Below, one piece after another: positions 854-26,873 of a DNA stretch of 64,000 nucleotides. Within the stretch, counting starts at the first letter, position 1, and every line of letters begins with the position of its first letter. Under the pieces are notes generated by a model that was not told the origin of the DNA, did not search any database, and saw only the letters and a program-made list of their open reading frames with translations. The translations under genes were made by a program, and so were the position numbers. The DNA comes from a bacterium (GTDB lineage Bacteria; Patescibacteriota; Microgenomatia; Woykebacterales; RBG-16-39-9b): positions 586,460 through 650,459 of the forward strand of contig JAUYID010000009.1 of assembly GCA_030704665.1 (NCBI GenBank), in the 5' to 3' direction.

Positions 854-3116
<2,263 letters not shown>

Positions 3117-3614: not shown

Positions 3615-3616
3615 CC

Positions 3617-9734: not shown

Positions 9735-10024
9735 TCTAAAAAGAGGATTTTCCCCTGTATTTTGTCTCTGGGAATCAGACCAAGTTTGCGGCTGTCCAAA
9801 CTATCTTCTTTTTTGTCTCCTGACAAAAAGTAGCCGTTGTTGTCTTTTTCCGTAATTCTTTTTACAAAATTTTTTCCTTGCCAATCAAAAACAACTACGT
9901 CCCCAATCTTTGGTTTTTGAAAAAAATAGGCCCAGTGATTTACCCAAACTAGCCTACCCTCGGTTAGTGTTGGCTCCATGCTGTGGCCTTTGATACGATA
10001 GCGGGAAAAAGGAAACAGTTTCAC
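9725..10024 (-). CDS. sodX: S26-family signal-peptidase-like protease, putative Ni-SOD maturation peptidase SodX
   Basis: 99 aa with GHSMEPTL... (Ser of the SPase-I-type Ser/Lys dyad). Lies immediately downstream of sodN in the same orientation, overlapping it by 4 nt. Confidence 0.7.
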   Translation of the reverse strand: MKLFPFSRYRIKGHSMEPTLTEGRLVWVNHWAYFFQKPKIGDVVVFDWQGKNFVKRITEKDNNGYFLSGDKKEDSLDSRKLGLIPRDKIQGKILFLDYF

Positions 10025-10515
10025 TTGTGACTAACGATTTCGCCTTCGGTTGGAAAGCCTGATTTGACCCGAACCACTTCTAGCCCTTTGGATTGATAAA
10101 AAATCTCAGCAAAATCCTGAACCAGTTTCAAAAGTTCCTCGGATCCTTCCAAACTAATTTCTTGTTTGGCTTTTGAGGCTGCTTTCATAATTTTGAAAAC
10201 TTTTTCGTGCAAATCTGGGTACTTCTCAATCTGCTCAGTTTTGAAGTAGTCTCCCCAAATGACTCTAACCTCATTTTTTACTTTTTCGGCGTGTTCCTCT
10301 TTTACTTTTGTAAGGCGGCTGATTTTAAAGTCTGAGCTGTTGTCAGCCTTATTGTCATCAGGATCGTTTTTTACTTCACTCAAAAGCTTCGTCATTCTGA
10401 TGACAGTGTGAGCTGCAACTTGAGCTTCATGAGGATCATAAATCCCGCAGGGGATATCACAATGAGCGAAAGCACTTTTAACTGGGAGAACTTTATCTAA
10501 AATTTGATTAAACAT
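10021..10515 (-). CDS. sodN: nickel-containing superoxide dismutase precursor
   Basis: Ni-hook motif HCDIPCGIYDP preceded by a 17-aa leader, MFNQILDKVLPVKSAFA. Total 164 aa, matching Ni-SOD length. Confidence 0.85.
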   Translation of the reverse strand: MFNQILDKVLPVKSAFAHCDIPCGIYDPHEAQVAAHTVIRMTKLLSEVKNDPDDNKADNSSDFKISRLTKVKEEHAEKVKNEVRVIWGDYFKTEQIEKYPDLHEKVFKIMKAASKAKQEISLEGSEELLKLVQDFAEIFYQSKGLEVVRVKSGFPTEGEIVSHK

Positions 10516-10594
10516 AAACTACCTCCTTTATATTTACTTTCTATTTTGCCGTTAATTTTCCTTCTCTTCAAGAGCCAAGCGGAGCGAGAATCAG

Positions 10595-12604: not shown

Positions 12605-12704
12605 TTAATCATAGCGGAAAATTTCTCTCTTCAAAAGCCTTGTTTTGCCGATTTTTGATCTAATTTTGCTTGCAAAAACAGCCTGGCTGAGTTATAAATT
12701 TTTA

Positions 12705-13430
12705 ATGAATCAAAAGTTCGACCCAAGAAACAAAAAATTTCTAGCCGTGAGTGCTCACCCCGACGATGCTGATTTTTATGCTGGTGGAACGATGCTGTCC
12801 TGGCTTGCTTCTGGAGCCAAAGGTTCTATCGTAATCGCGACCAACGGAGACAAAGGCAGTAGTGATAAAAATTTAACTTCGGAGAAACTAGCCGAAACGC
12901 GCAAAAAAGAGCAACTCTCGGCCAGTTCCGTTCTGGGGCTGGAACAAACTTGGTTTCTCGATTTTCCTGATGCTCATCTCGAAATAACCCAAGACTTGAA
13001 AGCAAAACTCGTCAAGATAATTCGTGAGTATAAGCCAGACGCAATTTTTACTTTTGACCCCAGTGATTTTTATTCTGTGCAACTAGGTCAGATCAACCAC
13101 CCTGACCACCGTGCAATTGGCCAAGCTGCTCTGGACGCCGCCTTTCCACAAGCACGGGATTTTCTTACTTTCCCCACAGAGGGGCAACAAGGTTTGCAAC
13201 CCCACAGCGTTACGGATTTTTTTCTCTACAATAGTGATTTGGAAAAAAACAATTTTTTTGTCGACATTAACTCTTTTTTTGAGAAAAAACTTGACCTACT
13301 CAAACTCCACAAAAGCCAAGTTGATATGCAAGAAGCAAAGGCAGAACTGGAAAAACTGAATAGCCAAGCCGGGGAGAAAATCGAAGCTAAACTAGCAGAA
13401 GGTTTTGTCCATGTCCAACTAAGTTCTTAG
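12705..13430 (+). CDS. PIG-L/LmbE family N-acetylglucosaminyl deacetylase
   Basis: AVSAHPDDADFYAGGTM and downstream HPDH motifs. Start trimmed to the Met of MNQKFDPRNKK; the track ORF begins at 12645. Confidence 0.75.
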   Translation: MNQKFDPRNKKFLAVSAHPDDADFYAGGTMLSWLASGAKGSIVIATNGDKGSSDKNLTSEKLAETRKKEQLSASSVLGLEQTWFLDFPDAHLEITQDLKAKLVKIIREYKPDAIFTFDPSDFYSVQLGQINHPDHRAIGQAALDAAFPQARDFLTFPTEGQQGLQPHSVTDFFLYNSDLEKNNFFVDINSFFEKKLDLLKLHKSQVDMQEAKAELEKLNSQAGEKIEAKLAEGFVHVQLSS

Positions 13431-13819
13431 TATACTTTCTTGGGGTCAGTCAGAGAGTGGAGAATACCCCCAACGACGGACATGACCAAGGCCCCGAACA
13501 AAGCAGACCAAAAGCCGCTAACAGAAAACCCAGAAACCAACCAAGCAGCAAGCCCAAACAGGGCCGCGTTGACAATTAGAGCAAAAATTCCCAGTGTCAG
13601 TAGGGTTATTGGTAGTGAAACAATCTGCAGAACTGGCTTAATCAAGGCGTTGACCACCCCAATCACGAGAGCCGCAAGGAAAAGGGTGGCAGTATCTTCA
13701 ACCTCAATTCCAGGCACAATTTTCACCACCACAAATAAAGCAAGCGCGTTGATGATCCAAGCAAGTAAAATTTTCATCTTCCTTACTGATAACTTAACTT
13801 TCTCAAACGAACCTGTCAA
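13427..13819 (-). CDS. 4-TM membrane protein of the phage_holin_4_2 family
   Basis: 130 aa with four TM helices. ...NALALFVVVKIVPGIEV...LGIFALIVNAALFGLAAWLVSGFSVSGFWSALFGAL resembles the family pattern. Confidence 0.65.
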   Translation of the reverse strand: MTGSFEKVKLSVRKMKILLAWIINALALFVVVKIVPGIEVEDTATLFLAALVIGVVNALIKPVLQIVSLPITLLTLGIFALIVNAALFGLAAWLVSGFSVSGFWSALFGALVMSVVGGILHSLTDPKKVY

Positions 13820-13893
13820 CTAGCAAGCACCTCTTGCCAAAATGAAAAAGTCGTTTATAATTTATAAATCGGCCCAGCAAAGAAGCGTATACA

Positions 13894-14580
13894 ATGGCAG
13901 CAGCAAAAAGAAAAACACCAAGAAGCACAACCTCTGTCCCCAGAATTCGAAAAATAAGAAAGTTTTCTTTCAATTTTTCTGACCTTCGCAACAAAACCAA
14001 AAGCGAGTACAACTCTCACGCTAGTCTTTATCCTCTTGTTATTTTCATAATTATAGTTTTAATAGTTTTAGCCGCCCTTTTTACCTTTAGACGTGGTCTT
14101 TTTCTGGCTGGAACTGTGAACGGTCAATTTGTTTCTACCCCCGAGTTCTACCAAAAGCTGGTTCAAGGTGGTGGCACCAGTACTTTTGACACTCTTACTC
14201 GAGATATTTTGATTAAACAAGAAGCAGCAAAAAAGAAACTGACCGTCAGTCAAAAAGAAGTTGATTCTCGTCTAACTACTGTAGAAAAAAACCTTGGTGG
14301 CAAAGACAATTTAAACAACGCTCTTTCCCAAAACAACCTGACTCTGGCTGAGCTAAAAAAACAACTTGAAGTCCAGCTTCTCGCGGAAAAAATTCTTGAT
14401 AAGGATCTTCAAGTCAGTGATGCCGAAGTGACCAAATATATTGCTGAGAACAAAGATGCAACCAAAAATATGAGTCGTGATGAAGTCAAAGAACAGCTTC
14501 GTACCGAAAAATTCAACACCAAATTTACTTCTTGGTACGATGAGCTGAAAAAGAACGCCAAAATAGTTAAGTATTTCTAA
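13894..14580 (+). CDS. membrane-anchored SurA-N-terminal-domain-like chaperone (no PPIase domain)
   Basis: 228 aa. N-terminal TM helix, then a helical domain with the SurA_N/PpiD-like pattern. Confidence 0.45.
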   Translation: MAAAKRKTPRSTTSVPRIRKIRKFSFNFSDLRNKTKSEYNSHASLYPLVIFIIIVLIVLAALFTFRRGLFLAGTVNGQFVSTPEFYQKLVQGGGTSTFDTLTRDILIKQEAAKKKLTVSQKEVDSRLTTVEKNLGGKDNLNNALSQNNLTLAELKKQLEVQLLAEKILDKDLQVSDAEVTKYIAENKDATKNMSRDEVKEQLRTEKFNTKFTSWYDELKKNAKIVKYF

Positions 14581-14606
14581 ACCTTTTTTCCACCAAAAAC
14601 CCTTTG

Positions 14607-15533
14607 CTAACCCTCGATTGCGTCAAAGTAAGCATAAACGTCAGCAGCTGCCTTCTGAATTGCTTTGACTCGATTTTGGTAAGTCCCTCCCCCATTGGTA
14701 AAGACAACCAGAGTAAAAGGATGACGAGGATGGGCAACAATGGCAGCGTCATGAATCTCAGCGTTGTAAGCTCCCCATTTGTGATAAACCTTGATTCCCT
14801 TGGGTATTCCAGGGGGAATTCTGTCTTCTTTGTTGGTGTTGGCCATGTAAGAAAGCAAAAGCTGACGGTGAGTTTTGCTTAGGACTTTGCCAGCATAAAG
14901 ACCATAGAGCAGGTCTGAGACGGCTCTTGTTGTCATGCGATTGTTCTCTACATCAACTTTGAGTAACCCCAAACTATCAGCTTGTCTTTGCTCAGTATCT
15001 TTGCCAATCAGATTGTTGATCAGATCCCAAGAAAGATTGTTACTTTGGTTGATCATTTGCTGAATTTGGTACTGAAGAGTATAACCACCCAAAGGTTGAT
15101 CAAGCGAGAGTTTCCCTTGTTCGACCCCTCTCAAAGCGGTCGTCGCTACCAAAACCTTGATGACGGAAGCAGCGTGCAGCGGGCTCGTTTCTTTGATACC
15201 AAATTTATCATTGATTTCGATATCGTTGATTGAAACACGAAAATCGCTACTGGGAGCTAAATCCTTTTTTAGCTTGGCTAGAAGAGCCTTTTTCTTTTCT
15301 TCATCTGGTTTTCTTGGTTCAGGTGCTTTTTTCTCAGCTGGCTGACTAGCAATCTTTTTCCCCAAAGAAGTAATTGTCTTTAGAGTTGTTTTTTGGTTTA
15401 GAAAAAAGTAAGTTCCAAAAACAAACAAAAGAAGGAAAAGAACGGTAAGCGAAATTTTAACCACTTTCCCAATGAATCTTTTCAAGAAACTTGGTTTACG
15501 GGACTTATAAACAAAGGAATAAGACATTAGCAA
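14607..15533 (-). CDS. serine hydrolase, class A beta-lactamase/penicillin-binding-like
   Basis: 308 aa. N-terminal TM helix, then the SxxK active-site motif (AASVIKVLVA). Confidence 0.6.
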   Translation of the reverse strand: MLMSYSFVYKSRKPSFLKRFIGKVVKISLTVLFLLLFVFGTYFFLNQKTTLKTITSLGKKIASQPAEKKAPEPRKPDEEKKKALLAKLKKDLAPSSDFRVSINDIEINDKFGIKETSPLHAASVIKVLVATTALRGVEQGKLSLDQPLGGYTLQYQIQQMINQSNNLSWDLINNLIGKDTEQRQADSLGLLKVDVENNRMTTRAVSDLLYGLYAGKVLSKTHRQLLLSYMANTNKEDRIPPGIPKGIKVYHKWGAYNAEIHDAAIVAHPRHPFTLVVFTNGGGTYQNRVKAIQKAAADVYAYFDAIEG

Positions 15534-15736
15534 CTATTTTAACTTAAGTAAAAACTTTGCACAAAAAAAGCGCCTTTTTGGCGCATCAACTTTATCTATT
15601 ATAACACCCAGAAAATACCCAAGTCAATTTTTTTCGGTTTCGCTTTCGGTTTTTACAATTTTTGGTGGGCCAAAATCCCCGCCCTTGAAAAACAAGTTTT
15701 TTTGCATTTTTCTGCCGAAGCGTTAGAATTACCTTT

Positions 15737-16315
15737 GTGAAAATAATTTTGGCAAGCTCCTCACCCCGTCGAGTCGAGGTCATGAAAAACCTCGGTCTTG
15801 ACTTTGAAACCATTCCTTCGAGCTTTGACGAACGCGCTGTCAAAGAAGCAGATCCTTTGCGGCTGGTAAAAACTCTGGCATTGGAAAAAGCTCGAGTTGT
15901 CACCCAGGAGAATCCGGGTTCTGTAGTAATTGGGGCCGACACCATGGTCCAAATCGCCGATGAGTTTGTCGGCAAGCCAAAGGATTTAGAAGAAGCGCGT
16001 AGAATGCTGCGTAAAGCTAGTGGCCAAGAAGTCAAAGATTTTGTCGGCTTAGCCGTCATCTTTAATAATCAAGAAAAGGCAATGTCTTCCATTGGAAGAG
16101 CGAAAATGAAGTCTTTTGGAGACAAAGAAATTGACTCTTACCTCAGTCGCGTCAACCCTCTTGATAAAGCCGGTGGCTTTGCTGGAGCAGCAGCAGAAGG
16201 TGGGGAATTTTATGCAAGCTACTCTGGTGAGCCTGGACAGGAGTTTGGTTTGCCCCTGACTTCTCTCGAAAAATTCTTAACTGAATTTGGAGTCGCGGTT
16301 CCCAAGCAAGATTAA
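15737..16315 (+). CDS. maf: Maf-like nucleoside triphosphate pyrophosphatase
   Basis: N-terminal KIILASSSPRR and the overall Maf pattern. 192 aa. Confidence 0.85.
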   Translation: MKIILASSSPRRVEVMKNLGLDFETIPSSFDERAVKEADPLRLVKTLALEKARVVTQENPGSVVIGADTMVQIADEFVGKPKDLEEARRMLRKASGQEVKDFVGLAVIFNNQEKAMSSIGRAKMKSFGDKEIDSYLSRVNPLDKAGGFAGAAAEGGEFYASYSGEPGQEFGLPLTSLEKFLTEFGVAVPKQD

Positions 16316-16345
16316 CCTCTTCTCCCCCAGTGCTAAAATAGAGGT

Positions 16346-16750
16346 ATGGAAAAAACAGCTAAAACTGAATCGGAATTGAAAAAAGAACTTGATCCTGAAG
16401 TCTACCGTATTGCTCGGGAAAAAGGTACCGAAGCGCCTTTCAGCGGCAAATACACTTATTCCAAAGAAGAGGGTGTTTACAAGTGTATGGTTTGTGGAAA
16501 CCCGCTTTTTGCTTCCGCTACCAAATTTGATTCTGGTACCGGCTGGCCTAGTTTTGATAAACCAATTTCTCCCGCTTCCATCGAATATCGAGAAGATAAT
16601 GATCAGGGCATGGTTCGCATTGAAGTGATTTGTGCCCGTTGTGGATCACACTTGGGTCATGTTTTTGATGACGGGCCGACCGAAACTGGGAAACGTTACT
16701 GTTTGAATTCCGTCTGTCTAAACCTTCAGTCGAAAGAAAAAGAAGTTTAA
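16346..16750 (+). CDS. msrB: peptide-methionine (R)-S-oxide reductase MsrB
   Basis: CGNPLF...GWPSF...RIEVICARCGSHLGHVF, i.e. the SelR/MsrB zinc and catalytic Cys motifs. 134 aa. Confidence 0.9.
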   Translation: MEKTAKTESELKKELDPEVYRIAREKGTEAPFSGKYTYSKEEGVYKCMVCGNPLFASATKFDSGTGWPSFDKPISPASIEYREDNDQGMVRIEVICARCGSHLGHVFDDGPTETGKRYCLNSVCLNLQSKEKEV

Positions 16751-17190
16751 AAATCGTGTAAATATTTTTCTGCAAAACCGCCGGCCTCTCTCTCTTGCTT
16801 GGCAACTTCTCCTGCAGTTTGGCGTTCCAAAATTGCGTTGCGGTGCTTGAGGATGACATGACCAATTTCGTGAGCAATGGTGTAACGCTGTTGCCGCCTG
16901 CTTTCAGAAAAAAGCTCATCACTGAGAAAAATCAAATATTTTTTCTGGATTTCTTCTCCTCGCAAAGTAAAACCCCAAGCATCTTCAAAAGAGCTAACAA
17001 ACCAGCAGTTTTTGGTGACAAAATTTTGTATCTCTTGCGGAAAGGCAAGTAAAGTCTCACAGACCAAAAACTGCATCCGTGAATTTCCGATCAGCTTTCC
17101 AGCAAATTTTTCTTTAATAATCTCGAGCTCGGCTCTCATAGAAATATATTGTAGGACTAGAGCAATAAACTGGTCAATCCTTTTTACCAA
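16747..17190 (-). CDS. ImmA/IrrE-family zinc metallopeptidase (COG2856-like)
   Basis: HEXXH motif in RYTIAHEIGHVILKH. No adjacent XRE-type HTH partner was recognised. The start may instead be the Met near 17139, because a hairpin plus T-run (17172-17220 on the minus strand) overlaps the first codons. Confidence 0.6.
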   Translation of the reverse strand: MVKRIDQFIALVLQYISMRAELEIIKEKFAGKLIGNSRMQFLVCETLLAFPQEIQNFVTKNCWFVSSFEDAWGFTLRGEEIQKKYLIFLSDELFSESRRQQRYTIAHEIGHVILKHRNAILERQTAGEVAKQEREAGGFAEKYLHDF

Positions 17191-17386
17191 AAGAAAAGCG
17201 AGCCTTGCGGCTCGCTCCTCTTCTTAAACCTTTCATTGTCATTCTGAACTTGTTTCAGAATCTTTGAAAGATTTAAGGGTTTGACGACTTTGGTTGAGAA
17301 AAGCATTAAATTCCTTGGCTTTGCTTTTCTCGTCGTCATCCCTGCGGTTTACCAATTCCGCTCTCGGTCGGGACCGACCGGTTGCT

Positions 17387-17932
17387 TTAGAAGTCGGTTT
17401 CTGGCTCCTGCTCTCCATAGAACGTATCGTAAACATACGTCCCAAGATAGAAAAGCAAGAAAACCAAGGCTCGAAGTGTGTCTCGTCCTGGATCATGGAG
17501 TGTGACGTCCATTACTGGAAAAAAGACCGAGGCAGCATAGTAAAACATCGGGCCGAAAATGGCGGTGTGGTAGAGTTGGCTCGGCTTACGGATTTGCCGA
17601 GAGGAAAGGCTTCCTGATCGAAAAGCATTGAACTCTTGCAGGATAGCCAGGACTACTCCAAGCCCCAAGATCGACAGATGCCACCAAACTTCATTGTAGA
17701 AACGGTCCGCGGTGTTGTGATTTTGCACTATCACCGCCGCAAACCCTGCGTAAACTGGAAGCCCAACAGTATCTCCCAGTCGAAAGCTCCACCAACGCCG
17801 TAGATACCACCTACCCTCGAAGGCCCGCCTCAGGACCATGATGACACCGAAATCGATGACGAAAATGTAGATCGCGACAAGGAACGGGTTCCAGGACCAG
17901 ATGTCAAACCCAAGACTGGAGAACTCTTCCAC
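17387..17932 (-). CDS. hypothetical polytopic membrane protein (GC-rich island)
   Basis: 181-aa ORF with about five hydrophobic helices. Coding GC is clearly above the window background. Confidence 0.4.
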   Translation of the reverse strand: MEEFSSLGFDIWSWNPFLVAIYIFVIDFGVIMVLRRAFEGRWYLRRWWSFRLGDTVGLPVYAGFAAVIVQNHNTADRFYNEVWWHLSILGLGVVLAILQEFNAFRSGSLSSRQIRKPSQLYHTAIFGPMFYYAASVFFPVMDVTLHDPGRDTLRALVFLLFYLGTYVYDTFYGEQEPETDF

Positions 17933-18081
17933 CTCTGCACCTCCAAGTGCTCTGAAACCAAAACTGTCAATGTGCGAAACAAAAGCAACTGATTGCTGAG
18001 AAAAGCCTTCTCAATTTATCAATTGCCTTTGCAAAGGTGTTTACCGGGTCCAGAGGCGGAGATGCGTGGACCCGGCAGACG

Positions 18082-18780
18082 TTACTTCGTGAGGGTGAGC
18101 TGTTTGAAGACCATCAGCACATGCGGGTGCTGAGTGTCTGGAATCTGTGTGCCGTACTCAGTTAGGTTCACAGCTCCTTTGTACTTGGCGACTGCTTTTG
18201 TGAAGTCACCGCCGTACTGATCAACCAATTCACCAAAGTAACGTGCAGAACAGTAGACGTTTTCGAAAGGATCAAAGCGCAGAGCCGGGTCACAGACCTC
18301 CGGAAAGGAGCTGAGCTGACCCAGGCCAACGCAAAGATCCTCTCCGCAGGCAACCGGACCGGAATTGAGGATTTCCCAATTTTCGTGCGATTCTCGGATG
18401 AAGGAGCAATCCGCACTTTCTGTTCCCCGCGGTACCCAGTGGTAGAAAGAACTCTCCGTGAAGAGAAGCTCCAACCACACTTGGGCAGCATTGGGGTCCT
18501 CAAAGTCGTCCAAAACCGGGGTGATCACCTGCGAGAGCATACATCCCTGAACAACGTCTAACTGCGGGATTTGAGCCTCGATGCGAATCGGACTCTGGAC
18601 AACCGGTGCTGCTGCACCAGCCACCCTAGCATGAGGAGTCGGCACATCCTTGTGCGTGTGAGCGTACGCCCACTTTATTCCAGGCCAAACCACTGCGAAC
18701 ATGGCTAGTGTAACTAGCACGTTCGCCAGGAGCTTGTTTCCCTGCCTGGCTTGTGCCGGACGTGTCCTTGTGGTGGGCAT
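18082..18780 (-). CDS. secreted or membrane-anchored protein with a lytic transglycosylase (SLT)-like domain (GC-rich island)
   Basis: 232 aa. N-terminal hydrophobic segment, then LELLFTESSFYHWVPRGTESADC...CVGLGQLS, which resembles the SLT E-S...GLMQ catalytic pattern. Confidence 0.45.
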   Translation of the reverse strand: MPTTRTRPAQARQGNKLLANVLVTLAMFAVVWPGIKWAYAHTHKDVPTPHARVAGAAAPVVQSPIRIEAQIPQLDVVQGCMLSQVITPVLDDFEDPNAAQVWLELLFTESSFYHWVPRGTESADCSFIRESHENWEILNSGPVACGEDLCVGLGQLSSFPEVCDPALRFDPFENVYCSARYFGELVDQYGGDFTKAVAKYKGAVNLTEYGTQIPDTQHPHVLMVFKQLTLTK

Positions 18781-18898
18781 AGGAAACCTCCTTTACCACC
18801 CTCCTCCAGAACGTGCCCTATAGTATAGCAATTTCGATCGTAAAAATCAAGTACTATAAGATATTTAACCGTCTCCTCTAGCCTGCTATAATTACTCA

Positions 18899-19444
18899 AT
18901 GAAAGAACCTTACAAAAATATTGTTGTTGCCGGAGACGTTGGCGCTGGAACTACTACCCTAGCCAAGGCTCTAGCCAAAGAACTTGGCTGGGAGTTTGAA
19001 TCGGCGGGAAGTTTTTTTCGTGATTACGCAATCAAAAACAGCATTCCTCTCTGGGACAAAGAATCTGTTCCTGATGAGGTCGACAAAAAAGTGGATGCGG
19101 AAATGACCGAAAGATTAAAAACTGGGGAGCACCTAGTTCTTGATACTCACTACGCTGGTTGGTTTACACGAGATGAGCCAAGCGTTTTCAAGATCTTGTT
19201 GCTTTGTGATCGACAGATTGCTACAGAGAGGATGCTGAAGAGAAAACACACTCACGAAGAAACCCCAGAAACGATTGAGAAAAGAAGACAAGGTTTGTAC
19301 GCAAAATTCAAAAAACTCTACAGTGATGAGCCCTACGAAGATCCGAAATTTTATGATTTGGTGATTGATACTGGAAAAAACTCTCCCGCCGAGACTCTCG
19401 CGATTACCCTAAAGAATTTTCACTACGTGAAAAAAGATTGGTAG
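18899..19444 (+). CDS. cytidylate-kinase-like P-loop NTPase
   Basis: 181 aa. P-loop VAGDVGAGTTTLAKALAKELG at the N-terminus. Confidence 0.55.
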   Translation: MKEPYKNIVVAGDVGAGTTTLAKALAKELGWEFESAGSFFRDYAIKNSIPLWDKESVPDEVDKKVDAEMTERLKTGEHLVLDTHYAGWFTRDEPSVFKILLLCDRQIATERMLKRKHTHEETPETIEKRRQGLYAKFKKLYSDEPYEDPKFYDLVIDTGKNSPAETLAITLKNFHYVKKDW

Positions 19445-19450
19445 TAATTA

Positions 19451-19531
19451 CTTTAGAAAAGGTACCAAAAGGAGTGCAACGATGTTGATAACCTTAATCA
19501 TTGGGTTAATTGCCGGTCCAGCGGTGTCTTT
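19451..19531 (-). repeat. intergenic duplicate of the last 27 codons of hppA ([27 protein letters not shown], with stop at 19448-19450)
   Basis: A 41-nt exact direct repeat (19476-19516 = 19588-19628). When translated, the copy encodes a peptide identical to the true hppA C-terminus (19563-19643). There are 11 synonymous codon differences and none non-synonymous. Confidence 0.8.
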
Positions 19532-19559
19532 AAGTCGCCCTAGCGACGCAAAGATACGG

Positions 19560-21578
19560 CTATTTAAGAAAGGGTACGAGGAGTAAAGCAACGATGTTGA
19601 TAACCTTAATCATTGGGTTAATTGCCGGACCCGCCGTATCTTTATAGGGGTCTCCAACTGTATCTCCGGTGACCGCGGCTTTGTGGGCTTCCGAGCCTTT
19701 TCCACCGTACTGCCCTTCTTCGATGTATTTCTTGGCATTGTCCCAGGCGGCTCCTCCGTTTGTCATCGAGACGGCGACGAAAACTCCAGTAATTAAAGTT
19801 CCAACGAGCAACCCTCCAAGCGCTGCTGCTCCCAGAAAGTAGCCGACCAGTACTGGGGCCACGACTGGAATTAGCGCGGGGACGATCATTTCTTTTTGAG
19901 CTGCCGCAGTCACGATAGCAACTGCCCGAGCGTAATCTGGTTTAGCACTCCCTTCCATGATCCCTTTGATTTCTTTGAATTGGCGGCGCACTTCAGTGAC
20001 CACACTACCAGCCGCTTTGCCAACCGCCTCCATTGCGAGAGCAGCAAAAAAGTAAGGTAGGGCTCCGCCAATGAAAAGTCCGACGAGAACTTTTGGATCG
20101 GAAATAGTGAAAGTAACCGTACGACCGGCAGCCAGCAACTCTTCTGAGTAAGCTGCAAACAAAACGAGAGCGGCTAACCCCGCTGAAGCAATCGCATAAC
20201 CTTTGGTGACAGCTTTGGTAGTGTTGCCAACTGCGTCCAGTGGATCGGTCACCGCTCGGACTGAAGCGGGCAAACCTGCCATCTCGGCGATACCACCAGC
20301 ATTGTCGGTAATCGGTCCAAAGGCATCAATTGCCACCACAATACCGGTCATAGACAGCATGCTCACTGCCGCAATGGCAATCCCGTAGAGACCAGCGAGA
20401 TTAAAGGAAACAAGAATAGCGGCGGCAATAAGTAAAATTGGCGCCAGTGTTGATTTCATTGAGACAGCTAGACCAGCGATGACATTGGTCCCGTGTCCAG
20501 TGGTTGAAGCTCTCGCGATTGATTTTACTGAAGGAAAACCTTTGGAGGTGTAGTATTCGGTAATAACTACCATTCCTAGGGTCACAATCAAGCCAATGAG
20601 AGAAGCATAAAAAAGGCTTTGTGGGTCTGGACCGATCACTGAATCCGTAGAAAGAGCGTACACTTTATTCGCAAAGAAATTGTTCGTCACCCACCAAAAA
20701 CCAATCGCAGCTAGTATTCCAGAAACAATTAATCCTTGGTACAACGCTCGCATTATCCCAGTCCCGGAAAGCCGAACGAACAACGTACCAATAATTGAGG
20801 CAATTATTGAAACTGCTCCCAAGGCGAGTGGGTAAAGAACCACACTTGTGTTACCAGGAAAAACAAGTGAGCCAAGCAACATCGCGGCAATTGAAGTCAC
20901 TGCATAAGTTTCAAAAAGATCAGCCGCCATCCCCGCATCATCTCCGACATTATCCCCGACATTGTCGGCAATTACCGCCGGATTGCGCGGATCATCCTCC
21001 GGAATTCCGGCTTCGACTTTTCCAACTAGATCAGCTCCGACATCAGCTCCTTTGGTAAAAATTCCACCACCCAGGCGAGCAAAAACAGAGATTAAAGAAG
21101 AACCAAACCCAAGACCGATGAGAGCTTTGACATCATGGGTGAAATAATAAAATCCAGCCACAGAAAGCAGGGCCAAACCGACGACAAAAAGTCCGGTCAC
21201 GGCTCCACCTTTGAAAGCAGTATCGAGTGCCGAAGCAAGTCCTTTTTTGGCGGCTTCAGCAGTTCTGACATTAGCTCGCACTGCCACATTCATACCGATA
21301 AAGCCCGCTGCGGCAGAAGCGACTGCTCCGACCAGAAAACCAATTCCAGTCACCATTCCCAGTTTCCACCAAATAATGAGGAAAATCAGCAGACCGACCG
21401 CGCCAACTACTCTATATTGTCGGTTTAAGTAAGCAGAAGCTCCTTCTTGAATCGCAGTAGCGATCTCCTGCATTTTTTTGTCCCCGGCCGAAAGTCTTAA
21501 AACCAAACTGACCAGAACCAGTCCGTAAAGGATGGCAGCGCCTCCGCTAGCCAGAATCCAAAGTAAAGGGTTGTTCAT
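19560..21578 (-). CDS. hppA: membrane-bound H+/Na+-translocating pyrophosphatase
   Basis: 672 aa, about 16 TM helices. Signature [22 protein letters not shown] and a C-terminal ...[21 protein letters not shown]. Confidence 0.9.
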
Positions 21579-21699
21579 AAACTTTTGCTGTAGCTAACTA
21601 AATTGTAAAATAACTTTAATTGGCAGATTGGCTGGTAGTTTATCGAAAAATACACACGTTGACAAGATCCTAAGCAATTATTAATAATGTAGAAAGACG

Positions 21700-21850
21700 C
21701 GCAAGCGTCTGTATCAAGAGCTCCTGAGCGAAGCCAAGTCTGACTTGGCGAAGTCGAAGGACGGCAACCCCACAGGTAGGGTGCCAAAACGATACGCCCG
21801 CAAGGGAACTGTCTTTTTTGACACTTTCTTTCGGGAAAGTGTTTTTTTTG
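21700..21850 (+). ncRNA. SAM-I-like riboswitch with intrinsic terminator (metK leader)
   Basis: Conserved SAM-I blocks in order: P1 strand GTATC/GATAC, AUCAAGAG, GGCAACC, GGUGCCAA. The expression platform is the hairpin CACTTTCT-TTCG-GGAAAGTG plus T8 at 21822-21849. The metK RBS AAGGAGG is at 21871. Confidence 0.55.
21822..21849 (+). terminator. rho-independent terminator with UUCG tetraloop (riboswitch expression platform)
   Basis: Seven G-C/A-T pairs plus one G-T wobble, a TTCG loop, followed by TTTTTTTT. Confidence 0.7.
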
Positions 21851-21885
21851 TTTTTATAATCTTGGCTTTTAAGGAGGATTATTAA

Positions 21886-23001
21886 ATGTACAAACTTTTT
21901 ACTTCTGAATCAGTTGCCGCTGGACACCCAGACAAAATTTGTGATCAGGTCTCCGATGCCATTGTTGACGCGGCTCTCAAAAACGATCCTAGCTCAAGAG
22001 TCGCCGTCGAAACTTTGGTCACTACCAACCGCATCGTTCTCGCTGGCGAAGTTACAACCAGCAAAAAACTTGACTATGAAGCCCTGGCTCGAAAAGTGGT
22101 TCGCGATTTGGGCTATACTGATCCAGAACTTGGCTTTTCCGATCAGGCAGAAGTAGAAGTTTACATCCACGAGCAGTCTAAAGAAATTTCTCATGGGGTT
22201 GATCAGGATGGTGCCGGAGATCAAGGTATGATGTTTGGCTTTGCCAACAATGAAACCCCAGAGCTGATGCCGACTCCAATCATCTTGGCACACAAACTAA
22301 CTGAGAACCTCGACTCTCTAAGAAAAAAGGGAACCTTACCCTATCTTTTGCCAGATGGTAAAAGCGAAGTCACCATTCGCTATGAAGGGTTGAAACCAAC
22401 CGCAGTTGAGCGAGTCGTTCTTGCCGTAGCGCATAAAAAAGAAATTGCCGAAAAAGAACTTGCCGCCGATCTCTTCAAAGAACTTGTCGTTCCAAGCCTT
22501 GAAAAGTTCAAGTTCAGGGTTGACCAGAGCGCTGTCATTATCAATGGTGCTGGGCCTTGGACTAGTCCGGGACCAGCTTCCGATACTGGTTTGACTGGGC
22601 GCAAAATTGTCATTGATACTTATGGCGGTTTTGCTCGAGCTGGTGGGGGCGCGTTTAGTGGTAAGGATCCAACCAAAGTCGACCGTTCCGGAGCCTATGC
22701 AGCGCGCTTTTTGGCCAAAAACATTGTTGCTGAGAATCTTGCTGATCAGGTCGAAGTCCAAGTCGCCTATGTCATTGGCCAAGCCCAACCAGTGGCTAAA
22801 GCAATTGAGACTTTCGGGACCGAAAAGAAAAGTTTAAAGCTGATTGAAGATTTTGCCTGGAATTTGCTTGATTTGGCCGTGCCTCATATTTTGACTAAAC
22901 TTGATTTACGAAAGCCGATCTACCAAAAAACCGCCTCCTACGGTCATTTTGGCCGGGACCACTTCAGCTGGGAAAAAACTTTTCCCAAGAAAAAGAATTG
23001 A
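21886..23001 (+). CDS. metK: S-adenosylmethionine synthetase
   Basis: AAGHPDKICDQVSDAIVDA, GAGDQGMMFGFA and GGGAFSGKDPTKVDRSGAY are the MetK signatures. 371 aa. Confidence 0.9.
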   Translation: MYKLFTSESVAAGHPDKICDQVSDAIVDAALKNDPSSRVAVETLVTTNRIVLAGEVTTSKKLDYEALARKVVRDLGYTDPELGFSDQAEVEVYIHEQSKEISHGVDQDGAGDQGMMFGFANNETPELMPTPIILAHKLTENLDSLRKKGTLPYLLPDGKSEVTIRYEGLKPTAVERVVLAVAHKKEIAEKELAADLFKELVVPSLEKFKFRVDQSAVIINGAGPWTSPGPASDTGLTGRKIVIDTYGGFARAGGGAFSGKDPTKVDRSGAYAARFLAKNIVAENLADQVEVQVAYVIGQAQPVAKAIETFGTEKKSLKLIEDFAWNLLDLAVPHILTKLDLRKPIYQKTASYGHFGRDHFSWEKTFPKKKN

Positions 23002-23147
23002 CAAACGAAACTTTTTAGTAGTAGACTTTTTTAGAAAAGACTGATAGTCAATGCTTTTCCTGCTCCCTAAAACTATGAAAAGATCATCACCTCGTGAAGA
23101 ATATTCTTTTAACAAGATTATGAAGGCTGGATAGGGGGTGATTAATT

Positions 23148-23813
23148 GTGACACTACAAGACTACATTAACCTCACTCAAGACTCAATCAACAACTTCTT
23201 CAATGGTCTCGGACCAACTTTATCCAACATCGTCGCGGCAATCGTCATCTTCGCCATCGGACTAATTATTGGCTCAATACTAAAAAGAGTTTGGGAAGAA
23301 ATCAGTAAGGCAGTCAGTCTCGAAAGAAGTCTTTCTGGTTGGGACGCTTACCAAAAACTGACCAAGGCTCATGACGGAGTCGATCTAACTTCCTTTGTCG
23401 GAGAGTTGCTTCGCTGGCTATCAGTCATTGTCTTCTTGCTTCCAGCCATCGATGCGCTAGGAATTGCCGGTGGACAAAGTGTACTCTCAGCAGTCATGGG
23501 TTACTTGCCAAACGTGGTCGTTGCTAGCTTGTTCTTGGTCGTTGGTTTTGTCATCTCTTGGTTCATTCATCGCTTAGTCATGGTCGCGGGTGTTTTGGTA
23601 GACAAAAACCCCTCCCATCTCATTGCTGACGTTGCTGCTTTAGCAGTCATCGTCTTTGCTCTACTTGGGGCTTTACAGCAGCTTGGCTTGGGCGCTGATC
23701 TGATCAGATTCTTTGTTTTGGCTGGCTTTGCTGCGACGGCTCTTGCCTTTGGATTGGCTGGTAAAGATACAGCCGCGGAATTGATCAAGAAATTCATGGA
23801 TCGAGCCAAATAG
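23148..23813 (+). CDS. small membrane protein with repeated TM-helix motifs (MscS N-terminal 'conserved TM helix' type), paralog 1
   Basis: 221 aa, 5-6 TM helices, internal repeat. Clear paralogy to the next gene (e.g. FVGELLRWLSVIVFLLPAIDALG vs LLAELLRWFTILIFLIPAVDQLG; both C-termini carry GLxGKDTAA). Confidence 0.6.
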   Translation: MTLQDYINLTQDSINNFFNGLGPTLSNIVAAIVIFAIGLIIGSILKRVWEEISKAVSLERSLSGWDAYQKLTKAHDGVDLTSFVGELLRWLSVIVFLLPAIDALGIAGGQSVLSAVMGYLPNVVVASLFLVVGFVISWFIHRLVMVAGVLVDKNPSHLIADVAALAVIVFALLGALQQLGLGADLIRFFVLAGFAATALAFGLAGKDTAAELIKKFMDRAK

Positions 23814-23851
23814 GAGAAGAATTACTGTGTTAGAAATTATCAAGGAGGACT

Positions 23852-24532
23852 ATGCAAGAGGTAAGTACAGCGGTCGTTGATGCAATCACCGACTCATTGC
23901 GAGCAACAGCTCGTTTCTTACCGAACCTGATCGCAGCGATTGTCATCTTCATCATTGGAGTGATTGTGGCTGCAATCTTGAAGAACGCTCTTTTGAGAAT
24001 TCTCGAGGTTATCAACTTCGAGCGTTGGCTGCACAACACCGGCATTCCCGAAGCCCTGAAACGGGCAGACGCGACTCTTTCAGTCAGTAAACTTTTGGCA
24101 GAACTTCTGCGCTGGTTTACGATTCTGATTTTCTTGATTCCAGCTGTCGATCAGCTAGGACTTGGGGCGGTCAATGAAGTTCTCAGTCAGTTGCTTCTCT
24201 ACATCCCCAACGTTGTGGTCGCCGTGATCATCGTTGCTGTTGGAGCAGTAGCTGCAAAACTGGCACGAGATTTCGTGACAGCGACTGCAACTGGGGTCGG
24301 AACTCAACTCTCGGGCGTGATCGGTCAAGTCGCTCAGACCTCAATTTTGGTCTTTGCGGTCCTAGCCGCCCTCACTCAGCTTGGTGTCGCTCCCGACTTG
24401 ATCAAAATCCTTTTCACCGGCTTTGTTGCTATGCTAGCAATTGCGGGTGGTCTGGCCTTTGGTCTCGGTGGAAAAGATACCGCTGCCGGTGTCTTAGAGA
24501 CAATACGAAAGAGCTTTCAGGAAAAGAAGTAA
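23852..24532 (+). CDS. small membrane protein with repeated TM-helix motifs, paralog 2
   Basis: 226 aa, tandem paralog of the preceding gene, with its own RBS (AAGGAGGA at 23833). Confidence 0.6.
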   Translation: MQEVSTAVVDAITDSLRATARFLPNLIAAIVIFIIGVIVAAILKNALLRILEVINFERWLHNTGIPEALKRADATLSVSKLLAELLRWFTILIFLIPAVDQLGLGAVNEVLSQLLLYIPNVVVAVIIVAVGAVAAKLARDFVTATATGVGTQLSGVIGQVAQTSILVFAVLAALTQLGVAPDLIKILFTGFVAMLAIAGGLAFGLGGKDTAAGVLETIRKSFQEKK

Positions 24533-24644
24533 AAGGGCAAGAAAGCAAAGTAATTCTCTCTTGTACTGGGGCTTCTTTATGAAGTAAAATTCTTGCTGAA
24601 AATGCACGATTATCTGTCCGCCTCTGTCCTGATAAGGAGGCCCT

Positions 24645-26873
24645 ATGTATAAAAACCTGCTCCTTTTGCATCAACTTGAAAAAGAAGACTCCCCTGAGGT
24701 TGGGTTCAAGGCCGCACGTTTGGGTGAACTGTCCAGGCAAGGTCTAAAAACTCCCTCTGGCTTTGTCATTGCTTCAGAAGCTTTTTTTGATCTCCTCAAA
24801 AATAACAATCTTTACGAAAAATTTGAAAGCCTTTTTAAATCTCTGGACTTTCACCACCATCATGAACTCGAAAGCGCTTCTCTAATTTTTAAAAAGGCTC
24901 TTTTGGCTTCCCAACTACCAACTGATTTGGAGGAAAAGCTCAAAAGCGTCTTTTCTTCGTTTTCTCCTGTCTCAAGCCAATTTTTTCTTTCTTTGAGTAC
25001 AAACAATGAAGCTGTTGCCAGTTTTTTTGAAGAAAAGGAAAAATTTTTCACCGCCAGAAGTCTAAACGTCTTTATCAAAGAATTAAAATCTTCTTGGGCG
25101 GACGTCTTTGACCCAAAAGTTATTTTTCTTGCCAAAAGCAAGGAAGTTGACTTTGCAACTCTGACCCCAAGCTTAGTTTTTCAAGCCCTCGCCGCCGCCG
25201 ATGCCTCGGGGACGATCAAAACAAGGCAAACTTCTCTCGGCAACCTTGTTTCCCTCACCGCCCTCTGGGGTTTGGATACGGACCTTCACAAAAGAGTCGA
25301 TGAGGCAGACACTTACTTGGTTGACAAAAAAACCTTGGCCATTGTCCGAAAAACCATTGGTCAGCAAAAAATTCAACTCATTCCTGTGAGGGATAGTGTC
25401 AAAAAACTGCCAGTACCTTTAGTCTTTTCTAGCCAACAAAAACTTGAGGATCGCCTCATTCAAAAGCTGTGCAAAGACGCAGTAAAAATAGAGAACCACT
25501 TTCTTTCTCCCCAAAAAATCCACTGGTTTTTGGTTGACGACAACCTAATGATCGACAGTACCCAGCCTTTAGAGGAAACAGAGAAGATAAACTTCAACTC
25601 CGCCCGCTTACTTCTGGAAAATTCTCTACAAGTTCTCGCCAAAGGAAGGGGTCTCTATCCAGGAATTGCAACGGGACCAATTAAATTTTTAAGCTCGAAA
25701 TTGACTAGTACCAAACCAAACCTGAGCAAAGTAAAAAATGGGGATATAGTTTTTCTCAAAGAGTACTCGAACAAATACTCTCCTCTACTTCGCAAGGCTG
25801 CTGGCTTGGTAGTCAGCAAACTTCCAGAAAAAGCCTTTAGCGCTTCTTTAAGAAATCTGGGCAAACCAACTCTGGTTGGAGAAGTAGCGGAAAACTACGC
25901 TGGACAAGTCGTTACTCTTGATGGTGGAGAAGGAAAAGTACTGAAAGGTGCTTGGGCTAGGGAGTCCCGGCGCAGTCTTCCCACCCGAGCACAGACAGTC
26001 CCAGAACACCGTCGGCTCACCAAAATTTTTGTTAGTACCGGAGAGCCACAACTTGCGCAGGAACTGGCCCAACAAAACTTCGACGGAGTTGGTTTACTGC
26101 GCGCCGAGCCAATTTGGACGCAGATCGGTACTCATCCCCAGCTGGTTCTGAGAGAAAAGGGAGAGAAAAAGTTTGTTCGCGCTCTCGCAAACCAGATCGG
26201 CAAACTCGCGGCAGCTTTTTCCCCTCGGCCGGTGATCTACCGAGCCAGTGAATTTACTCTCGAGGATTTGCAGGCTCTTCGCGGTAGTCCCAAAGAGCAA
26301 GCTTCTGAGAGCTCTCCCCAAGGAGCTGCCTATTTTCTAGCTCATCCAGAGCACTTTGAACTTGAGCTTGAAGCAATCAAGGAGGTACGCAATGGTCTGG
26401 GCTTTAAAAACCTTTGGCTCGCGATTCCTCTAGTTCGCAGCGTTGAAGAAATGGAAAAAATCAAAAAACAAGTTTCCGGCATTGGTTTACCTCGTTCTGG
26501 CTCTTTCCGCTTGCTGATGATCGCGGAAGTTCCCGCCAACACGGTTCTCATCGATCAATTCTTGGAAACCGGTATTGATGGCCTTGTTGTTGATGTAGCT
26601 GATCTTGCTTCTTTGATTTTGGGTAAGACCACTTCACCGGGTTCAAAAACTAGCCCGGCGGTGCTCGATTCTTTAGCTAGATTGATCAAAGAAACCCGCA
26701 AAAGAAAGCTCTTTGCTTCGGCTATTCTTCAAGCCGGAGAGCTGAACGAGGAAATCTTGGAAACCCTCGTCCGAGCCGGAGTCTCGGCTGTTTCCGTGCC
26801 GCACCCTTACCTGAACCAGGCGGCTTCACTTTTGACTAAAGCTGAAAAGAAAATTGTCACGGGAAAAAACTAG
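24645..26873 (+). CDS. PEP-utilising-enzyme family protein (PpsA / pyruvate,water-dikinase-like), probably non-canonical
   Basis: 742 aa. N-terminal nucleotide-binding domain (GFKAARLGELSRQGLKTPSGFVIASEAFF), central mobile domain and C-terminal barrel (GVGLLRAEPIW, RASEF). The expected phospho-His (GGRTSHAA) appears as LPEKAFSA, and the MCE Cys as MIAEVP. Confidence 0.65.
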   Translation: MYKNLLLLHQLEKEDSPEVGFKAARLGELSRQGLKTPSGFVIASEAFFDLLKNNNLYEKFESLFKSLDFHHHHELESASLIFKKALLASQLPTDLEEKLKSVFSSFSPVSSQFFLSLSTNNEAVASFFEEKEKFFTARSLNVFIKELKSSWADVFDPKVIFLAKSKEVDFATLTPSLVFQALAAADASGTIKTRQTSLGNLVSLTALWGLDTDLHKRVDEADTYLVDKKTLAIVRKTIGQQKIQLIPVRDSVKKLPVPLVFSSQQKLEDRLIQKLCKDAVKIENHFLSPQKIHWFLVDDNLMIDSTQPLEETEKINFNSARLLLENSLQVLAKGRGLYPGIATGPIKFLSSKLTSTKPNLSKVKNGDIVFLKEYSNKYSPLLRKAAGLVVSKLPEKAFSASLRNLGKPTLVGEVAENYAGQVVTLDGGEGKVLKGAWARESRRSLPTRAQTVPEHRRLTKIFVSTGEPQLAQELAQQNFDGVGLLRAEPIWTQIGTHPQLVLREKGEKKFVRALANQIGKLAAAFSPRPVIYRASEFTLEDLQALRGSPKEQASESSPQGAAYFLAHPEHFELELEAIKEVRNGLGFKNLWLAIPLVRSVEEMEKIKKQVSGIGLPRSGSFRLLMIAEVPANTVLIDQFLETGIDGLVVDVADLASLILGKTTSPGSKTSPAVLDSLARLIKETRKRKLFASAILQAGELNEEILETLVRAGVSAVSVPHPYLNQAASLLTKAEKKIVTGKN

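Follow-up and report, generated by a model that had tools for sequence, protein, structure and literature searches.

The last 27 codons of hppA, the gene for a membrane-bound pyrophosphatase, occur twice in the 64-kb stretch of DNA analyzed here (hereafter the window), and the second, untranslated copy (tail B) is probably a neutral remnant of the gene's former 3′ end, displaced when a foreign tail unit was recombined in and became the end now in use (tail A). Judging from the contigs compared, scars of this kind at the hppA end appear to recur in related uncultured bacteria, where they are sometimes stacked, and the kind of event that produced them is one already known. The features of the locus are collected in Table 1.

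Table 1. Features at the 3′ end of hppA; positions are those of the window.
Feature	Position	Strand	Basis or remark
hppA, membrane-bound pyrophosphatase, 672 aa, stop codon included	19560..21578	(-)	ORF list, translation, Pfam
Tail A, the 27 terminal hppA codons in use (KDTAGP...VPFLK)	19563..19643	(-)	Stop TAG 19560-19562
Tail B, untranslated second copy of the same 27 codons, with stop TAA (19448-19450)	19448..19531	(-)	+1 frame
Spacer, 28 nt, CCGTATCTTTGCGTCGCTAGGGCGACTT	19532..19559	(-)	Between tail A stop and tail B
41-nt core within tail A	19588..19628	(-)	Exact match
41-nt core within tail B	19476..19516	(-)	Exact match
Inverted repeat, 5′ arm, AAAGATACGGC on gene strand, equal to the opening 11 nt of tail A	19633..19643	(-)	
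Inverted repeat, 3′ arm, GCCGTATCTTT on gene strand, beginning with the G of the stop codon	19550..19560	(-)	
Small hairpin GTCGC-TAGG-GCGAC, spacer end	19534..19547	(-)	Sequence reading; present in predicted fold
Kinase-like gene (AAA_18 / cytidylate-kinase-like), convergent, conserved hppA neighbor	18899..19444	(+)	Pfam
Mechanical ORF, 47 aa, TTG start, from inside tail A through tail B	19448..19591	(-)	ORF list

The hppA product matches H_PPase (PF03030) in a Pfam search with an E-value of 2.6e-264 and is 100% identical to MDP2671513.1, encoded on a 938,369-bp contig. As an earlier note on this DNA had claimed, tails A and B encode the same 27 amino acids and share an identical central stretch of 41 nt, tail B stands in the +1 frame, and the residues just upstream of it read R-L in place of P-Y; the copies repeat with a period of 112 nt, hence the +1 frame. 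Outside the core the tails differ by 13 nucleotides, spread over 11 of the 14 flanking codons, plus the stop codon, and all of these changes are synonymous; the same note had described codons with three changed nucleotides, but none exist, and in the pairs TTA/CTC and CTC/TTG two positions differ in each. As direct repeats the tails are about 85% identical over 81-84 nt, and as alleles they are about 30% apart outside the core. The distance from core to core is 71 nt and the whole unit of 112 nt has no ORF of its own. No further copy of the core was found in the window at up to 3 mismatches, nor in 100 shuffles, and neither a third tail copy nor an element boundary was found within the window. 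The inverted repeat linking the two copies is real, at the positions in Table 1 and not at 19546-19558 and 19636-19648 as first given; its arms match at 11 of 11 positions, a value equalled by 1 of 20,000 spacer shuffles. These arms pair in the predicted centroid fold, while the whole fold is no better than shuffles (z -0.93). The hairpin near the spacer end forms with its flanks a quasi-palindrome that extends into the first codons of tail B.

The purely synonymous pattern had been considered unexpected for a neutral fragment. The pattern itself holds, random sets of 13 substitutions being all-synonymous in 0 of 200,000 simulations, but no selection on the copy is needed to explain it: most of the 120 closest homologues, down to about 75% identity, have the 27-residue peptide unchanged, and relatives write it with differing synonymous codons, so that the tails differ only synonymously because the peptide is invariant in the clade.

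The position of tail B suggests that it is the older end. A gap of 3 nt separates it from the stop of the convergent kinase-like gene, and in locus L082 (loci of relatives carry L numbers), whose hppA product has 83% amino acid identity and whose gene order is the same, the single hppA stop likewise lies 3 nt from the kinase stop; tail B therefore holds the ancestral position. The kinase-like gene also neighbors hppA in L083, L086 and L094-L100, and L083 and L097 have one tail without a remnant. Compared with the single-tail relatives, the window contains 112 extra nucleotides, made up of tail A and the 28-nt spacer. The spacer, whose CCGTATCTTTGCGTCGCTAG comes directly after tail A, begins with a sequence resembling an intergenic motif found behind hppA elsewhere (CCGTGTCCTTGCG in L094/L095, ATCCTTGCG in L083). 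Against the L095 spacer it matches at 11 of 13 positions in the same relative place, which 63 of 2000 shuffles equalled, and this likeness to a foreign intergenic motif may lend modest support. The spacer is also unlike the sequence after tail B. On these sequence comparisons, the inserted DNA would be foreign and not locally derived, as is characteristic of homology-facilitated illegitimate recombination (HFIR).

The process by which one hppA end replaces another can be followed in the sister lineage. Its hppA bodies share 97-100% nucleotide identity and their last 80-120 nt differ by 20-30%; along the last 840 nt of the gene, 0-4 mismatches per 30 nt give way to 4-12 per 30 nt over the final 80-120 nt. 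The breakpoints in this cluster fall between -118 and -76 from the gene end, with the K codon at -81. Together with the position of tail B, these tail swaps support the proposal that old and new 3′ ends came to lie side by side through recombination with a diverged allele. The broader claim that hppA had been replaced by recombination stands in principle, but the relatives exchange the last 80-120 nt only and not the whole gene.

Loci of the sister lineage carry zero, one or two remnant tails behind hppA, intact or decayed, and L086, L093, L094, L095 and L100 have one or two each. The L094 array consists of a front tail in use, a truncated second tail and a third that is 5′-truncated, the three alleles being about 25% apart, and the L093 remnant carries a deletion and an in-frame stop; these states of L093 and L094 are neutral decay following displacement. 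The L086 remnant has an M to T change. The earlier note had stated beforehand that altered copies in relatives would speak for neutrality and against its claim, and the decayed tails of L093 and L094 and the replacement in L086 are such copies; they indicate only that the remnant is neutral, in line with the reading of tail B as a displaced end, and tail B would be too recent for decay. Over 69 nt the second tail of L095 is identical to the tail in use in L093, so that what is a remnant in one genome serves as the end in use in another. The spacer of L094/L095 holds TCCTTGCGATAA(C/T)TACATT, identical at 18 of 19 positions to the hppA-kinase junction of L083 (0 of 2000 shuffles were as good), and since the kinase gene is not directly behind hppA in L094/L095, this L083-type junction marks the front unit as foreign. 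In L096 a remnant of the tail end (16 of 18 nt) lies beyond about 375 nt of inserted DNA, which is an event of the same kind with another junction. Beyond the window's clade no second tails were found among 80 diverse hppA loci (88 loci overall). A weak second-tail match at L050 was rejected, being the signal peptide of another protein.

Relatives found for the window hppA reached 87% amino acid identity at most, too little to assign a donor or a left breakpoint for the window. A search for the donor by sliding nucleotide identity returned relatives that were all 55-85% identical, with no long common run, and in a protein-level mosaic test the ranking of relatives changed along hppA but allowed no assignment to the window's lineage.

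The following course of events would account for these observations. DNA from a diverged relative would have entered the cell, most likely single-stranded and taken up from the environment, and in the window it may have paired with the chromosome in the ultra-conserved GDTVGDPY block, just upstream of the K codon. Past this block the alleles differ at nearly all synonymous sites and pairing would have halted; because it could not go on, the unpaired foreign stretch, i.e., the whole tail with its stop and a few bases of the donor sequence behind it, would have been inserted rather than exchanged, with an illegitimate joint at the K codon connecting its far end to the resident DNA. As an outcome, hppA would end in the foreign tail A, and the resident tail B would have moved 112 nt downstream, still abutting the kinase-like gene. 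The 41-nt core is harder to reconcile with a plain model of A as foreign and B as native, as its flanks differ in 11 of 14 codons and other pairs share no more than 23 nt (among allele pairs below 90% identity elsewhere the longest common runs are 5-23 nt, vs. 41 nt here). Such identity calls for an extra step in the displacement model, or for selection of the donor by long identity. Unexpected between alleles so diverged, the core appears to point to a crossover or to later conversion, and it could represent either conversion between the adjacent tails after the insertion or the crossover itself.

Among other explanations, a local tandem duplication over the abutting convergent gene ends, followed by patchy recoding through recombination with a foreign allele, is unlikely. 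It would have been microhomology-mediated or of the direct-inverted-direct type ("tandem inversion duplication"), harmless because both genes stay intact, and the 41-nt core could then be the residue of the original identity. The palindromic junctions and the short inverted copy of the tail start between the direct copies would be expected from such a process; the Y-K-D codons contain a mini-palindrome, TAT-AAAG-ATA, as a possible fold-back seed, and the window also has a 25-nt perfect duplicate of the 5′ part of a tRNA-Gly followed by an inverted copy of its end. However, the spacer does not resemble what follows tail B, hence the two units do not derive from a single local unit by copying, and flanks that are synonymously saturated without a replacement change are impossible through decay in place. 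The three diverged alleles of L094 and the foreign gene junction in its front unit would moreover require several further events. The tRNA-Gly duplicate is, in its own right, a fresh local event of the direct-inverted type.

The joints themselves show a regularity that displacement by a foreign tail does not readily explain. At least five junctions lie at the same K codon (..CTT/AAAGAC, ..CTA/AAAGAT, ..ACT/AAAGAT, ..CGT/AAGGAC and ..TCT/AAAGGA, with the slash at the joint), each beside a short inverted copy of the tail start. The 11/11 inverted repeat of the window recurs in L094/L095 with matching codon choice, and a hairpin in L086 occupies the position corresponding to that of the window hairpin. 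Clustering at the K codon and the accompanying inverted copies are not a known feature of HFIR and count against the displacement model. The Y/K boundary of GDPY/KDTAGP could instead be a recurrent break or insertion point in the clade, repeatedly receiving self-contained tail cassettes, and we regard this as quite unlikely. A cassette would consist of a synonymously recoded tail and an intergenic piece with an inverted copy of the tail's first bases, and might arrive when a double-strand break, made sequence-specifically by a homing-type or defense nuclease directed against the invariant sequence, is repaired from a resistant foreign allele; fold-back synthesis at the broken end would give palindromic junctions. 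Clustered junctions with palindromic sequences could in any case indicate a specific site of breakage or stalling, and if the break point were truly recurrent, the hppA end would be a target of nucleotide-level conflict, beyond a passive recombination anchor.

Very unlikely is the scar of a mobile element, i.e., an integrase-driven or Campbell-type insertion that brought in the tail copy, with the core as crossover or attachment site and the element since mostly lost; we include here its cargo-free variant, an "insertion with long target duplication". An exact 41-nt core with diverged arms has the classical look of an attachment site, reciprocal hybrids fit weakly (5′A+3′B resembles the L097 tail, 5′B+3′A that of L096/L083), and insertions with direct repeats >30 bp and no mobility genes have been described, mostly in naturally competent species (PMC2853133). 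Variable XRE-type cassettes adjoin the arrays of L086-L100, and in L095 a serine recombinase is found at a distance of about 2.7 kb. Yet the cassettes stand outside the tail pair and not between the tails, the cores of the window enclose only 71 nt, and the window ORFs scanned include no integrase, resolvase, transposase or reverse transcriptase. A long identical core is, furthermore, absent from the L095 array, whose tails share runs of at most 10-11 nt, and from that of L086, and among IMG/VR phage contigs none carried the core or a tail fragment, the matches being only full-length hppA genes of giant viruses.

An assembly artefact, in which assembly or gap closing placed two strains' versions of this gene end one behind the other, has very little probability. 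The source is a metagenome-assembled genome, the copies differ as alleles of co-occurring strains would, and a second assembly of the organism was not found. Against this, neither strain would be expected to have the 28-nt spacer downstream of hppA, a single read of more than about 115 nt would cover the 71 nt and one core and extend into unique flank at either end, and five other contigs, from different projects and assemblers, show the same architecture, with decay that looks biological. The arrays of L095 and L100 are identical though their samples and assemblies differ, and for this reason an artefact can be considered unlikely for the window contig.

Equally improbable is a functional copy, be it a small membrane peptide under selection, an hppA product lengthened by frameshifting, or a 3′ RNA structure in which the tail start forms a stem with the bases behind the stop. 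Tail B has no replacement changes, an open frame of 47 aa begins inside tail A and extends across tail B, the inverted repeat keeps its matching codon choice in L094/L095, and three apparently selected mini-ORFs in the same genome copy the FtsZ C-terminal peptide; but peptide invariance accounts for the synonymous pattern by itself, the copy is absent from most relatives and is truncated, deleted or stopped in L093/L094 and mutated in L086, the frame relation varies by locus (L086 has no open frame from hppA), and the window copy has neither a start codon accompanied by a ribosome-binding site nor an Rfam match, nor a fold above shuffles. The 47-aa ORF is not regarded as a gene. The Rfam search covered 19300-19800 and gave no match up to E = 1, and the folds around the tail reached z -0.93 and -1.5 vs. 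shuffles, values to be read with only two independent sequences in existence.

Further candidates were rejected. A programmed frameshift or read-through extension would find its frame open in the window and not in L086, and the copy is disrupted in L093 and L094. In a diversity-generating retroelement the mismatches would correspond to adenines of the template copy, whereas all four bases are represented among the 13 differences and the protein is left unchanged by each of them, and no reverse transcriptase occurs in the ORFs scanned (7200-26873 and others elsewhere in the window). Duplication of an attachment site by a site-specific integrase was set aside as well, with no recombinase in the window ORFs scanned and no core common to independent arrays.

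The doubled hppA end provides sequence-level evidence that uncultured Patescibacteria acquire very short, highly diverged DNA beside a conserved gene, and such recombination events leave datable layers of old gene ends. It also advises caution in annotation, as a downstream copy with "only synonymous" differences can pass for coding sequence under selection when the clade simply does not vary in the peptide.

Several known systems resemble the locus in part. "Minimal mobile elements" are, reportedly since Saunders and Snyder in 2002, small variable regions exchanged between conserved flanking genes by homologous recombination. The islet of XRE genes and small ORFs between hppA and the kinase-like gene in the sister lineage resembles them, the hppA end beside it being the most exchanged part, whereas the window has no islet and remnant gene ends are no stated feature of the concept. 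Tandem inversion duplication and fold-back junctions, said to have been treated by Kugelberg and co-workers in 2010 and by Reams and Roth in 2015, share with the window direct copies separated by a short inverted unit end, and palindromic junctions; their copies, however, start out identical, whereas here different alleles and foreign downstream sequence are involved, at a scale of about 100 nt rather than kilobases. In integrative elements that enter gene 3′ ends (attL/attR), the incoming DNA also supplies the working gene end and the original end stays downstream as a direct repeat, with an identical core and diverged arms, but the window has no element or integrase between or beside its repeats, and a fixed core is missing from the arrays of relatives.

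Insertion with long target duplication, a subject reportedly taken up by Nobusato and co-workers in 2000, is approached by an insert that L082, L083 and L097 lack, by direct repeats of 41 nt (exact) or about 84 nt (at 85%), by the absence of a mobility gene and by a repeat that overlaps the gene's 3′ end. The insertions on record have direct repeats >30 bp and no mobility genes (Furuta et al., 2010; PMC2853133), and the described cases hold restriction-modification genes between nearly identical repeats (PMC2853133). The window insert, in contrast, is 71 nt without a gene, and its repeats are about 30% apart outside the core.

HFIR was, reportedly, described during natural transformation by de Vries and Wackernagel in 2002 and by Prudhomme and co-workers in 2002. 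No competence genes were seen in the 64-kb window. In naturally transformable bacteria, HFIR combines one homologous anchor with one joint at 3-10 bp (PMC6382021). Our case is alike in that one junction would lie in a homologous stretch serving as anchor, the conserved 3′ part of hppA, and the other would be non-homologous, that foreign DNA is trapped beside a conserved gene, and that the process works with highly diverged donors; the onset of divergence typical of an anchor was located in the sister cluster (-118 to -76) and not in the window, for which no close relative was found. It differs in that at least five junctions fall at one codon, flanked by short inverted repeats, and in that little or no resident DNA was deleted, so that the old gene end survives as a direct repeat.

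In the window, the last 27 codons in use by hppA, the membrane-bound pyrophosphatase gene (tail A), are followed after a 28-nt spacer by an untranslated second copy with its own stop codon (tail B). The earlier note had described this copy as encoding the identical peptide, sharing a central stretch of 41 nt (the core) and differing in the flanks by synonymous changes only, and all of this was borne out: outside the core 11 of 14 codons differ, by 13 nucleotides plus the stop codon, with no replacement, an outcome that 200,000 simulated sets of 13 random substitutions never produced. The +1 frame of tail B, also claimed, follows from its 112-nt offset, and no further copy of the core occurs elsewhere in the window. 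An inverted repeat does exist (11/11, equalled in 1 of 20,000 spacer shuffles), although not at the place originally assigned to it.

Features of the hppA locus, of other window regions and of the compared loci
Locus	Feature	Position	Strand	Details
window	hppA	19560-21578	minus	672 aa, Pfam H_PPase E 2.6e-264
window	tail A, last 27 codons of hppA	19563-19643, stop TAG 19560-19562	minus	translation
window	tail B, same 27-residue peptide, stop TAA	19448-19531, stop 19448-19450	minus	112 nt downstream, +1 frame
window	41-nt core	19476-19516 = 19588-19628	minus	exact identity
window	kinase-like gene stop	19442-19444		
window	inverted repeat	19550-19560 and 19633-19643		11/11
window	junction inverted copies	hairpin 19534-19547		11/11 repeat plus quasi-palindrome around hairpin
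window	variable flank	16747-18780		
window	family X DNA polymerase	41031-42734		PHP domain
window	tRNA-Gly(ccc)	45613-45687		duplicate region 45538-45633 upstream
window	ftsZ	62279-63355		
window	three mini-ORFs	61996-62281	minus	
L086	XRE islet	1081-1765		
L093	XRE islet	3020-3400		
L094	XRE islet	5374-6195		
L095	XRE islet	5290-6108		
L098	XRE islet	2670-3708		
L095	large serine recombinase gene	7735-8043		Resolvase + Recombinase domains
L096	inserted DNA with remnant	4996-5388		16/18-nt match to last tail codons (VPFLK*)
L094/L095	junction inverted copies			CGCCGTGTCCTT against AAGGACACTGCG, plus TATCT-AAA-AGATA
L093	junction inverted copy			GCTATCT-AA-AGGATAGC
L086	junction inverted copies			perfect palindrome AAAGATCTTT plus 16-nt pair of arms

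Most of the 120 closest homologues, those at about 75% overall identity included, carry the 27-residue tail unchanged, and the related loci L081, L082, L083, L096 and L097 encode the same peptide with different synonymous codons. Since the peptide is invariant across homologues, any two working alleles of the clade differ only synonymously. The pattern shows both window tails as working gene ends until recently, and is no proof of present selection on tail B. A role of tail B as functional peptide, hppA frameshift extension or known RNA was not supported.

Other gene-end copies were observed downstream of ftsZ, where three mini-ORFs in tandem, repeating every 111 nt, each possess their own ATG and end in IPAFMRQR, as FtsZ itself does; the codons common to the four copies differ only synonymously and the spacers are unalignable. 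The mini-ORFs look like selected small peptides mimicking the FtsZ C-terminal tail, and a limited literature search found no published account of them.

The genome behind the window is of Patescibacteria type. The best species-representative match (70% identity) belongs to Ca. Lloydbacteria, and many matches come from Woykebacteria or Daviesbacteria. The order of two MS-channel genes, metK, hppA and a convergent kinase-like gene is common to relatives that are 82-87% identical. In L082 the single hppA stop lies 3 nt from the kinase stop, and because the stop of tail B has the same spacing, the comparison demonstrates that tail B occupies the ancestral place; the extra DNA is tail A with the spacer, 112 nt in total. 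The spacer start CCGTATCTTTGCG resembles the motif behind hppA in L094/L095 (CCGTGTCCTTGCG) and L083 (ATCCTTGCG), a short likeness giving modest support, and is unlike what comes behind tail B. The proposal that old and new hppA ends were left side by side after replacement is supported, with the refinements that in the relatives the exchange covers only the last 80-120 nt and that the synonymous-only pattern calls for no selection on tail B. Beyond the kinase-like gene the flank is also variable: an RRM protein and an RND transporter are encoded there in L082 and L083, but in the window an ORF of IrrE/M78-peptidase type and two more ORFs that match nothing in Pfam.

Remnant tails occur in other genomes as well. 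L086, found by a pattern scan of metagenome contigs, has a second tail separated from hppA by 86 nt of spacer; it departs from the working tail by one replacement (M to T) and is otherwise altered only synonymously. Other members of its 90%-identity protein cluster were compared: L098 and L099 carry one tail and no remnant; in L093 one tail is accompanied by an internally deleted copy that contains an in-frame stop; in L095 and L100 another intact tail follows the first at 73 nt and differs from it in 18 codons, always synonymously; and L094 has three tails, the front one in use, the second cut after ..NPM and the third without its 5' part. The second tail of L095 equals the working tail of L093 over 69 nt. 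In L096 (82% to the window) about 375 nt of DNA has been inserted between hppA and the next conserved genes, ahead of an 18-nt remnant of the former hppA end. The insert holds a membrane-like ORF of 76 aa and a second, truncated one that starts ..IFFDWSGKL.. and runs into the remnant, making an insertion scar whose junction differs. No remnant tail was present in any of 80 hppA loci from farther afield. Taken at sequence level, the loci with remnants demonstrate a decay series.

In the sister cluster, a variable islet of XRE-type helix-turn-helix genes lies between tail array and kinase-like gene, with single or double HTH and with or without a 76- or 96-aa ORF, its content varying among genomes with 97-100% identical hppA bodies. 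The serine recombinase gene of L095 lies two genes past the kinase-like gene.

Over the last 840 nt of hppA, the L086 cluster shows 0-4 mismatches per 30 nt until about 80-120 nt before the end, and 4-12 per 30 nt thereafter, nearly every synonymous site being different. The switch points fall between -118 and -76 (the K codon, first of the tail, is at -81), in or just before the 26-nt stretch GATACCGTAGGGGACCCTTATAAGGA, which encodes DTVGDPYKD and is near-identical in all cluster members. The drop in identity therefore limits the swap to the tail and what follows, with the left crossover in the last block of nucleotide identity, and demonstrates tail swapping in near-clonal genes. The L094/L095 spacer holds TCCTTGCGATAA(C/T)TACATT, 18/19 identical to the hppA-kinase junction of L083 (0 of 2000 shuffles as good), while in L094/L095 a terminator and then an XRE gene come after hppA; hence the front unit is imported, spanning from inside hppA to just past the donor kinase stop, and its foreign nature is demonstrated.

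An integrase scar is an unlikely origin of the paired tails, given no recombinase among the window ORFs scanned, only 71 nt between cores, no core common to relatives and no IMG/VR phage carrying the hppA tail. An assembly artefact on the window contig appears improbable in view of the parallel structures in other genomes; L095 and L100, from different samples and assemblers, are identical over the 840 nt compared and the whole array, which argues against an assembler origin of such structures. Duplication of the hppA end in place cannot give flanks saturated with synonymous change or a spacer unlike the local downstream sequence, although fold-back events seem to occur in the same genome. There, the 5' part of tRNA-Gly(ccc) with 4 upstream bases has a perfect 25-nt duplicate 71 nt upstream, and after this duplicate its end recurs in inverted orientation (GCGGTAGG...CCTACCGC, inner AGTCT/AGACT pair); the whole is a direct-inverted-direct remnant and possibly a fresh fold-back duplication.

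For replacement by imported ends, we propose that diverged DNA would pair with the chromosome in the conserved block and fail to pair into the tail, which is mismatched at every third base. Left unpaired, the donor's tail, its stop and a few downstream bases would be joined to the resident strand where pairing stops, at the K codon, resulting in an insertion behind which the resident tail survives. Repeated rounds would build layered arrays as in L094, and recombination between adjacent tails would collapse them; the working tail of L093 looks like such a product. We infer the uptake route of the donor DNA, that strand exchange stalls at the K codon, and that the whole model carries over to the window. 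The window also encodes a family X DNA polymerase that includes a PHP domain; such polymerases act in end joining by filling gaps, and this one may be relevant to illegitimate junctions.

The core, the clustering of junctions and the inverted copies lie outside what the model explains. Tail-allele pairs below 90% identity (among 78 pairs) share exact runs of 5-23 nt; later conversion between the adjacent tails would account for the core, as would a crossover in a donor sharing that stretch by chance, unequal exchange with an array-bearing donor being a third option. The remnant starts exactly at the K codon in five junctions (window, two in L086, L094/L095 and L093), and elsewhere in L096 and the third tail of L094. 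Close to every K-codon junction, the first bases of the tail recur as a short inverted copy; single-tail loci have none, save a degenerate version in L083. The arms agree with the codons used in the adjacent tail (AAA GAT vs AAG GAC; two independent examples), which could reflect selection for a stem, fold-back synthesis recurring at a break or conversion between arms; predicted folds around the tail were no better than shuffles.

Events of this kind are already known: homology-facilitated illegitimate recombination, known from naturally transformable bacteria (PMC6382021), follows the same logic as the mechanism proposed for the hppA tails, and 'insertion with long target duplication' (PMC2853133) is related to it. 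New is the recurrent layered record of such events at one gene end in uncultured bacteria, its junctions clustering at a single codon.
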